Shown here: positions 15,245 to 16,248 of the stretch, piece after piece | How the letters are laid out: each line of letters starts with the position of its first letter | Position numbering within the stretch: the stretch's first letter is position 1 | Sequence record: PV648359 | Length of the DNA stretch: 64,000 nucleotides | Strand: one strand, 5' to 3' | From: Escherichia phage LF82-1 | Translations under genes and position numbers: made by a program | The notes under the pieces: model-generated | Databases searched by the model: none | What the model was told of the DNA's origin: nothing | Seen by the model: only the letters and a program-made list of their open reading frames with translations

Positions 15245-15290
15245 ATTATTTCCTCATTAGTTAATTCATTCTATCATCCGTTTATAAAGC

Positions 15291-15314
15291 AAAAAAGGAA
15301 CTCCGAAGAGTTCC
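15291..15314 (-). terminator. Rho-independent terminator (GGAACUC-UUCG-GAGUUCC plus U6)
   Basis: Minus sense GGAACTCTTCGGAGTTCCTTTTTT directly after the stop of the small ORF at 15314. Confidence 0.5.
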
Positions 15315-15487
15315 TATCCACATAGTACACCGTACAGAGGCTCATTTGAACTTTTAAATCGAATGGGCTTGTACGTAATAGTTCCTTCGGCTTTAGCTTT
15401 ATCATAAGACTCTTTAAAACGTCTCATTCTTTCTGCTTTGCCTTTACGGATTTTATCGAAATTTTCAGAAGTCGGGATGTTCGTCAT
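15314..15487 (-). CDS. Small basic protein, 57 aa (below the ORF-track threshold)
   Basis: Hand translation MTNIPTSENFDKIRKGKAERMRRFKESYDKAKAEGTITYKPIRFKSSNEPLYGVLCG; SD GAGG 9 nt upstream; terminator follows. Confidence 0.35.
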   Translation of the reverse strand: MTNIPTSENFDKIRKGKAERMRRFKESYDKAKAEGTITYKPIRFKSSNEPLYGVLCG

Positions 15488-15526
15488 GCATAAGCACCTC
15501 TCAGAAAATGCCTAAATCGATTTCTC

Positions 15527-15748
15527 TCATCGTTTCCACCATTTCTTAACTTGAAATGAATCAACCCACACGAGTTGTTTTGGGTCTGCCTTTACAATAG
15601 GCGGACAAATTTCTGTAATAGAACCGTCGTGATATTCCTTTTCGGAAATTTTAACACAAAGAGGACCTCCCAATTTAAGGGAGAACCCTGCGTTCAGCTT
15701 CAGACGTTTAAACTTTGTTTGAACTAGCGCCATTAATGATGTCCTCAA
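15527..15748 (-). CDS. Hypothetical protein (73 aa)
   Basis: ORF track; overlaps neighbour, start uncertain. Confidence 0.3.
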   Translation of the reverse strand: MRTSLMALVQTKFKRLKLNAGFSLKLGGPLCVKISEKEYHDGSITEICPPIVKADPKQLVWVDSFQVKKWWKR

Positions 15749-16031
15749 TAGCCTGACGAGTAGTAATCCACTGGATTTTAATTAACTTGTCATTGTATGG
15801 TTGTCGTAGAATATCCCGAGATTTCTTAATAGCATATTCGTAAGCTTCGAAGTTGTTTTGAATTGCTGCTTCTTGAGCATGTGCATAAAGACGGTTTAGT
15901 TCAAAACGATTCTTTTTAAGAATCTTTTCGGATTTTTTACGTGCTTCAGCTTCATTTTTCTTTTGGATTTCTTGTAGCATTTTAGCTACTGCATCTTCTG
16001 CTTCTTTATTTTCAATAATCTCGGTAGTCAT
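15708..16031 (-). CDS. Hypothetical protein (107 aa, helical, charged)
   Basis: ORF track. Confidence 0.5.
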   Translation of the reverse strand: MTTEIIENKEAEDAVAKMLQEIQKKNEAEARKKSEKILKKNRFELNRLYAHAQEAAIQNNFEAYEYAIKKSRDILRQPYNDKLIKIQWITTRQAIEDIINGASSNKV

Positions 16032-16032
16032 A

Positions 16033-16248
16033 TTATCTCATTAAATTAAAATAAAAACGTCCATCCTCTTCAATACAGAACTCGTACTCAACTGGAGTCC
16101 CATTTATTGAAAATGACACGTCATGTGGGTTCAAAGGGTCGATGTCAAAATTAATTTTAAATTCACGACCCAACAGTTTTACCAAATAAGGGATTGCTTC
16201 GTCAAAAGGTTCTTCTAAGTAGTTAGAGATGTCAATTGTCATCCTCAT
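16033..16248 (-). CDS. Hypothetical small protein downstream of gene 55
   Basis: ORF track 16033..16326 trimmed to an internal Met to limit overlap with gene 55. Confidence 0.4.

Follow-up and report, generated by a model that had tools for sequence, protein, structure and literature searches.

In all likelihood, the region between genes 47 and 55 of this phage is the normal, genus-wide 55-to-47 region of Mosigvirus (RB69-type) phages, and the phage DNA is modified by arabinosylation of the RB69 type. In T4, the alpha-glucosyltransferase gene a-gt (400 aa) is situated between genes 47 and 55. As the preliminary description had stated, no such gene is present here, and a tblastn search with T4 a-gt finds no homologue in the interval. 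Glucosylation of the phage DNA is almost certainly absent, and, judging by the gene content, the modified base is probably not hmC. The enzyme activities and DNA chemistry that we ascribe to this isolate are predictions drawn from 98–99.5% identity to RB69 proteins that have been studied experimentally.

The window, by which we mean the whole 64-kb stretch of DNA analysed, matches bases 96001–160000 of Escherichia phage LF82-2 (PV648360.1) with zero mismatches in a full-record comparison. Megablast of positions 14225–16807 likewise gave a 100% match to LF82-2, along with relatives 99% identical over the same span, such as vB_EcoM_NBG1 (Straboviridae, Tevenvirinae, Mosigvirus). RB69 shares the genus Mosigvirus with these near-identical NBG1-type phages, and the window is, by sequence, RB69-like (Mosigvirus) coliphage DNA. 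Whole-genome searches were made against the LF82-2 genome (169,999 bp), which was pieced together from the fetched record.

RB69 DNA contains arabinose rather than glucose, and RB69 has no homologue of a-gt, b-gt or ba-gt; its ORF003c was proposed as a GT-B arabinosyltransferase (Thomas et al. 2018, PMC6024577). The structure was later revised by Lee et al. 2026, with the arabinose ether-linked to 5-hydroxycytosine and not to hmC; in the same work, RB69 gp48 was shown to make 5-hydroxy-dCMP, while the roles of gp46:47 as first transferase and of gp3 as second are proposals, not fully reconstituted (PMC13326640). An independent 2026 study of Mosigvirus NP found the same mono- and di-arabinosylated dC and pointed to the same pair of transferase loci (PMC13390438). 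That RB69-type phages lack a-gt, b-gt and ba-gt has been in print since 2018, and the replacement chemistry was known by 2026.

The complete set of RB69 arabinosylation genes (p003, p045, p046:47, p048, p050, p051, p052:53 and p055) is matched at 98–99.5% protein identity, most of it at window positions 1–5851; p045 is a nucleotide kinase. In place of T4 gene 42 lies a gene for a thymidylate-synthase-family enzyme (751–1467, minus strand; Pfam Thymidylat_synt), the orthologue of RB69 gp48. At higher coordinates, and all on the minus strand, are genes for a U32-like protein (p050 orthologue, 1746–2906; Pfam Peptidase_U32), a HAD-like phosphatase (p051 orthologue, 2963–3349), a bifunctional nucleotidyltransferase/kinase (p052:53 orthologue, 3349–5034; Pfam NTP_transferase) and an arabinose-5-phosphate isomerase (p055 orthologue, 5216–5851; Pfam SIS). 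The products of this sugar-activation cluster are 98.4–99.5% identical to RB69p050, p051, p052:53 and p055, and we name their roles as assigned in PMC13326640. The p052:53 orthologue is one 561-aa ORF here and two split ORFs in RB69.

The first transferase, ara-GT1, is the orthologue of RB69 gp46:47 and occupies positions 1–751 on the minus strand, where the window edge cuts it to its N-terminal 250 of 299 codons; the full gene lies at L005:35852–36751 of the LF82-2 genome. It is a single 299-aa ORF here, 98–99% identical to p046 and p047, into which the RB69 reference record splits it. The gene adjoins the gene-42 homologue, in the slot taken by b-gt in T4 and by ba-gt in RB14. Neither arabinosyltransferase is recognised by Pfam or NCBIfam, and PHROGs matches only families of "unknown function"; fold-level and PDB evidence had to be used in their place. 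Modelled with AlphaFold, the ara-GT1 family (108 sequences, pLDDT 96) matched the GT-B enzymes MshA (3c4q) and HepE (4xso) and UDP-GlcNAc 2-epimerases in Foldseek, and the fold of ara-GT1, as modelled, is GT-B. The gene for the second transferase, the p003 orthologue, is located between rIIA and gene 39 in a part of the genome that the window does not cover. Its product shares 99.2% identity with the RB69 protein and about 98% with PDB entries 9IQZ/9IR0, deposited as a glycosyltransferase subfamily 4-like protein. By identity and fold, both GT-B proteins are candidate arabinosyltransferases, with a predicted specificity for arabinose.

All pathway proteins of the arabinosyl-5-hydroxycytosine system of RB69, HY126, Bas46/47 and NP are encoded here. 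In the proposed pathway, the thymidylate-synthase homologue (751–1467) would make 5-hydroxy-dCMP, which would replace dCMP in the DNA; the gene cluster at 1746–5851 would provide nucleotide-activated arabinose; and the two GT-B arabinosyltransferases would attach a first arabinose, followed by a second, to the 5-hydroxycytosine of the DNA. The preliminary description had proposed a non-glucose modification of hmC. Its non-glucose part stands, given the lack of a-gt, b-gt and ba-gt and the arabinose pathway at 98–99.5% identity. Its hmC part probably does not, as the product of 751–1467 is 99.2% identical to RB69 gp48 (RB69p048) and only about 25% identical to T4 gp42, and as the DNA of RB69 and of Mosigvirus NP bears arabinose ether-linked to 5-hydroxycytosine (PMC13326640, PMC13390438). 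Two further genes outside the window may be recorded alongside this set. A 330-aa DAHP_synth_1 protein (L006:36121–37113 of LF82-2; Pfam E = 5e-75), KdsA/DAHP-synthase-like, has a conceivable link to arabinose-5-phosphate metabolism, given the arabinose-5-phosphate isomerase of the phage. A 216-aa protein annotated merely as hypothetical in the LF82-2 record (L005:29897–30547) matches Pfam AdfA (anti-DarT factor A; E = 9e-119).

Whole-genome tblastn searches with the T-even glucosyltransferases returned no homologue of T4 a-gt (best E = 0.042 over 69 aa), of the T4 DNA beta-glucosyltransferase b-gt (best E 4.9) or of RB14 ba-gt, the T2/T6-type beta-glucosyl-HMC-alpha-glucosyltransferase (best E 0.85). 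The search for GT-B glucosyltransferases suggested in the preliminary description thus came back empty for the T-even enzymes, and the two GT-B proteins that did emerge are the predicted arabinosyltransferases. The best T4 a-gt match is a 200-aa ORF (phrog_2607) at window positions 46298–46900 on the minus strand. The alignment covers 69 aa at 28% identity, interrupted by a gap of 9 residues, and the ORF matches no Pfam family; we judged this to be a chance hit. The remaining ORFs of 180–331 aa with no assigned function gave no glycosyltransferase signal in Pfam or PHROGs, scans that very divergent enzymes could escape. As Pfam and NCBIfam are blind to both arabinosyltransferases, a third, cryptic transferase could be encoded among the ORFs of 200–330 aa. 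We also observed four large ORFs in a row (316, 319, 331 and 326 aa) at 25352–30430 on the minus strand, of which one matches DUF7235 and one has weak P-loop/HTH signals; none shows a glycosyltransferase signal in Pfam or PHROGs.

These results bear on the alternative that the phage still glucosylates hmC through an unrecognised glucosyltransferase elsewhere in the genome, the two GT-B proteins being glucosyltransferases themselves. Two proteins of this fold do exist, and the fold by itself leaves the sugar specificity open; several ORFs of 200–330 aa have no assigned function, and T4 a-gt has its weak best genome-wide match (E = 0.042) in a 200-aa ORF. However, the GT-B proteins are 98–99% identical to those of RB69, whose DNA carries arabinose and no glucose (PMC6024577, PMC13326640), and Mosigvirus NP gives the same arabinose result (PMC13390438). 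The genome also encodes the arabinose-5-phosphate isomerase with the rest of the arabinose activation cluster, its gene-42 homologue is of the 5-hydroxy-dCMP type, and the match at 46298–46900 spans 69 residues with a gap of 9 residues and has no support from Pfam. We consider glucosylation very improbable for this phage, and RB69-type arabinosylation remains the preferred reading.

The interval itself, positions 15245–16231, is the exact space separating gene 47 from gene 55. Its lower boundary is gene 47 (14225–15244, minus strand), encoding the SbcD/Mre11-like recombination nuclease subunit (339 aa; Pfam Metallophos; 75.5% amino-acid identity to T4 gp47), and its upper boundary is gene 55 (16232–16789, minus strand), encoding the late sigma factor (91% identity with T4 gp55); both are annotated in LF82-2. 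Between them we found four small minus-strand ORFs of 57–107 aa, a single intrinsic terminator and a single site resembling a MotA-box middle promoter, so that the earlier picture of an interval holding only small ORFs and a terminator was accurate as far as it went.

Each of these ORFs is an orthologue of a T4 gene, and the RB69 reference annotation names them a-gt.2, a-gt.3, a-gt.4 and a-gt.5. The a-gt.2 orthologue (15314–15487, minus strand; 57 aa; Pfam DUF5486, E = 4.5e-28; phrog_2140) shares 76% identity with T4 a-gt.2 over 54 aa (tblastn E = 8e-24; dN/dS 0.22). It is preceded on the minus strand by the a-gt.3 orthologue (15527–15733, minus strand; 68 aa, or 73 aa from an upstream TTG; phrog_1648), at 69% identity (E = 1.5e-28; dN/dS 0.11), and by the a-gt.4 orthologue (15708–16031, minus strand; 107 aa; Pfam DUF2654, E = 1.6e-27; phrog_951), at 58% (E = 9e-32; dN/dS 0.17). 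The a-gt.5 orthologue (16033–16248, minus strand; 71 aa; Pfam DUF5491; phrog_1169) is 47% identical to its T4 counterpart (E = 2.7e-14; dN/dS 0.16); it would be 97 aa long if started at an upstream ATG within gene 55, and it shares 17 nt with the end of gene 55, the same overlap as in T4 and RB14. The dN/dS values against the T4 orthologues (0.10–0.22) are rough, as dS is saturated, and argue that all four ORFs are real genes. T4 and RB14 likewise carry 55, a-gt.5, a-gt.4, a-gt.3, a-gt.2 and 47 in identical order and orientation, and T4 mirrors the spacing and overlaps seen here.

Could one or more of these small ORFs take over the role of a-gt by performing or controlling DNA modification? 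Their names refer to a-gt because of their position; they are conserved, evolve under purifying selection, and have no assigned function: all four PHROG families are labelled unknown function, PDB sequence searches gave no meaningful match, and a literature search for a-gt.2 to a-gt.5 turned up a single passing mention. Against such a role, the same ORFs coexist with a-gt in T4, RB14 and Mineola and are also found in phages that lack it, and therefore their presence does not track the modification type. At 57–107 aa, with no catalytic-domain match, they are also too small for a nucleotide-sugar transferase, and we regard this explanation as hardly credible beside modification by the predicted arabinosyltransferases.

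The a-gt.2 and 47 genes are separated by 69 nt. A terminator scan identified a hairpin at 15296–15315 on the minus strand, AGGAACUC-UUCG-GAGUUCCU followed by a U-run, that overlaps the a-gt.2 stop codon. With its 8-bp stem, UUCG loop and T-run, a fold energy of −13.9 kcal/mol (z = −3.2 versus shuffles) and a terminator annotated at the same hairpin in the near-identical phage NBG1, it has the features of an intrinsic terminator and probably acts as one. The consensus of T4 middle promoters is a MotA box (TGCTTtA) 11–13 bp upstream of a TAnnnT −10 element, and a MotA homologue is annotated in the LF82-2 genome. A site of this type, TGCTTTA-N11-TAGAAT, lies at 15268–15291 on the minus strand, 23 nt before the start codon of gene 47, and is a putative MotA-dependent middle promoter. 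A pattern search found 10 matches to the MotA-box pattern in the window against 1.8 expected, eight of them on the minus strand. Read along the minus strand, the junction runs from the a-gt.2 stop through AGGAACTC-TTCG-GAGTTCCT and the T-run to TGCTTTA-N11-TAGAAT, a Shine-Dalgarno sequence and the gene 47 ATG. Transcription of 55 followed by a-gt.5, a-gt.4, a-gt.3 and a-gt.2 would thus end at the terminator, which would close the transcription unit, and the MotA-type middle promoter would restart transcription into gene 47.

The same hairpin and MotA-box module occurs 3′ of a-gt.2 in T4, RB14, JS98 and Mineola, and the MotA box holds the same position in these four phages and in RB69; in Enterobacter phage MY742 the hairpin is present and the MotA box is degenerate. 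T4, RB14 and Mineola have a second hairpin and MotA-box copy 3′ of a-gt, where the window phage has a single copy. This second module marks a-gt as a cassette with its own promoter and terminator. The start annotated for Mineola a-gt is a TTG that falls within the MotA box of the hairpin/promoter module upstream (L013:3411–3460); translation probably begins some 48 nt further downstream, which would give a T4-like 400-aa protein.

RB69 (RB69p067–p070) has the same four genes, the same terminator/promoter module and the same 987-bp length as the window phage. An alignment of the interval gives 98.2% nucleotide identity over the 987 bp with no indels, and only point differences separate the two phages, for example a −10 element of TAAAAT in RB69 versus TAGAAT here; against T4, the orthologues align at 47–76% identity. 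What the interval lacks relative to T4 is limited to a-gt, 47.1 (46 codons) and the T4-specific homing endonuclease mobB. T4 and RB14 differ from the window phage in having the a-gt cassette with the second module, plus 47.1, and mobB is found in T4 alone; as the Tequatrovirus RB14 also lacks mobB, the genus-level difference is a-gt plus 47.1. No homologue of T4 47.1 was found anywhere in the whole genome.

Beyond Mosigvirus, there is no a-gt between a-gt.2 and 47 in Dhakavirus JS98, Gelderlandvirus S16 or Enterobacter phage MY742. JS98 and MY742 resemble the window phage in having a single module after a-gt.2 and no a-gt, but they retain a 47-codon 47.1, whereas the leader in the window goes straight to the gene 47 ATG. 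The preliminary description took the locus to be remodelled, which is an overstatement: the ORFs belong to the conserved set a-gt.2 to a-gt.5, and RB69, JS98, S16 and MY742 share the layout. The a-gt-less layout is the common backbone state and reflects no special remodelling. Conversely, the Tequatrovirus phages T4 and RB14 and the Jiaodavirus phage Mineola do carry a-gt at this locus. Among the a-gt homologues of the phage collection, those at least 90% identical, including those of T4 and RB27, come from records named for Escherichia, Shigella, Yersinia and other hosts, and homologues about 65% identical come from Klebsiella/Raoultella records such as Mineola. The a-gt proteins of T4 and Mineola share 64% identity, and the neighbouring gp46 and gp47 share 67–70%. 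These levels suggest long residence of a-gt at the locus and are compatible with either gain or loss. The empty slot had also been read as independent support for a non-glucose sugar, which it does not provide by itself: T4-like phages exist with b-gt and ba-gt homologues and no a-gt (Thomas et al. 2018, Table 1; PMC6024577), and therefore the slot is not diagnostic.

That the absence of a-gt is a recent deletion or an assembly artefact of this isolate can be set aside almost entirely: the a-gt cassette is elsewhere flanked by similar hairpin/promoter modules that could recombine, but 146 database records show the same contiguous layout (those in which a single location accounts for at least 80% of the 47-to-55 query), the independently sequenced RB69 aligns free of indels, and other genera also lack a-gt at the site.

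In the Tequatrovirus and Jiaodavirus phages, a-gt is a self-contained cassette between a-gt.2 and 47 with a hairpin-plus-MotA-box module on each side, and the window phage has a single module, no a-gt cassette and no 47.1. The module in the window is most similar to the JS98 module between a-gt.2 and 47.1, and runs directly into gene 47 instead of 47.1. We further observed that the leader from the −10 element to the gene 47 ATG (15236–15267, minus strand; GAATTAACTAATGAGGAAATAAT) aligns with the JS98 leader of 47.1, which indicates that the 47.1 ORF is cleanly absent and not decayed. We rejected a reading in which the window module combines the two T4 modules into a hybrid, as the sequences are too short and consensus-driven to test it and the JS98 module is closer. 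PeSL elements are terminator/promoter composites of T4-like phages for which a role in modular indels has been proposed (PMC2839356, PMC4122927). They resemble the window module in that a stem-loop is directly followed by a promoter and in that the module sits at the boundary of a gene present in some relatives and absent in others. They differ in that the PeSL promoter is an early one while a MotA box, and hence a middle promoter, would be used here, and in that the transcribed strand of the window holds just one composite. No other copy of the UUCG-hairpin and MotA-box composite was found on that strand besides the one at the 47 junction, and so a widespread repeated element is unsupported. 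We tentatively raise the possibility, which we think is somewhat unlikely, that the module at 15268–15315 is the single-copy footprint of a recombination site for gain and loss of the a-gt cassette among Tevenvirinae genera. If true, modular shuffling of the PeSL kind would also involve middle promoters and DNA-modification genes.

The missing a-gt itself matters little beyond correct annotation. The modification of RB69-type phages should be annotated as arabinosylated 5-hydroxycytosine and not as "non-glucose hmC", and an empty a-gt slot alone is unfit for inferring the sugar, because several T4-like genera lack a-gt there. How its DNA is modified influences the sensitivity of a phage to type IV restriction and to other defences, a point of relevance for candidates for phage therapy, this LF82-infecting phage among them.
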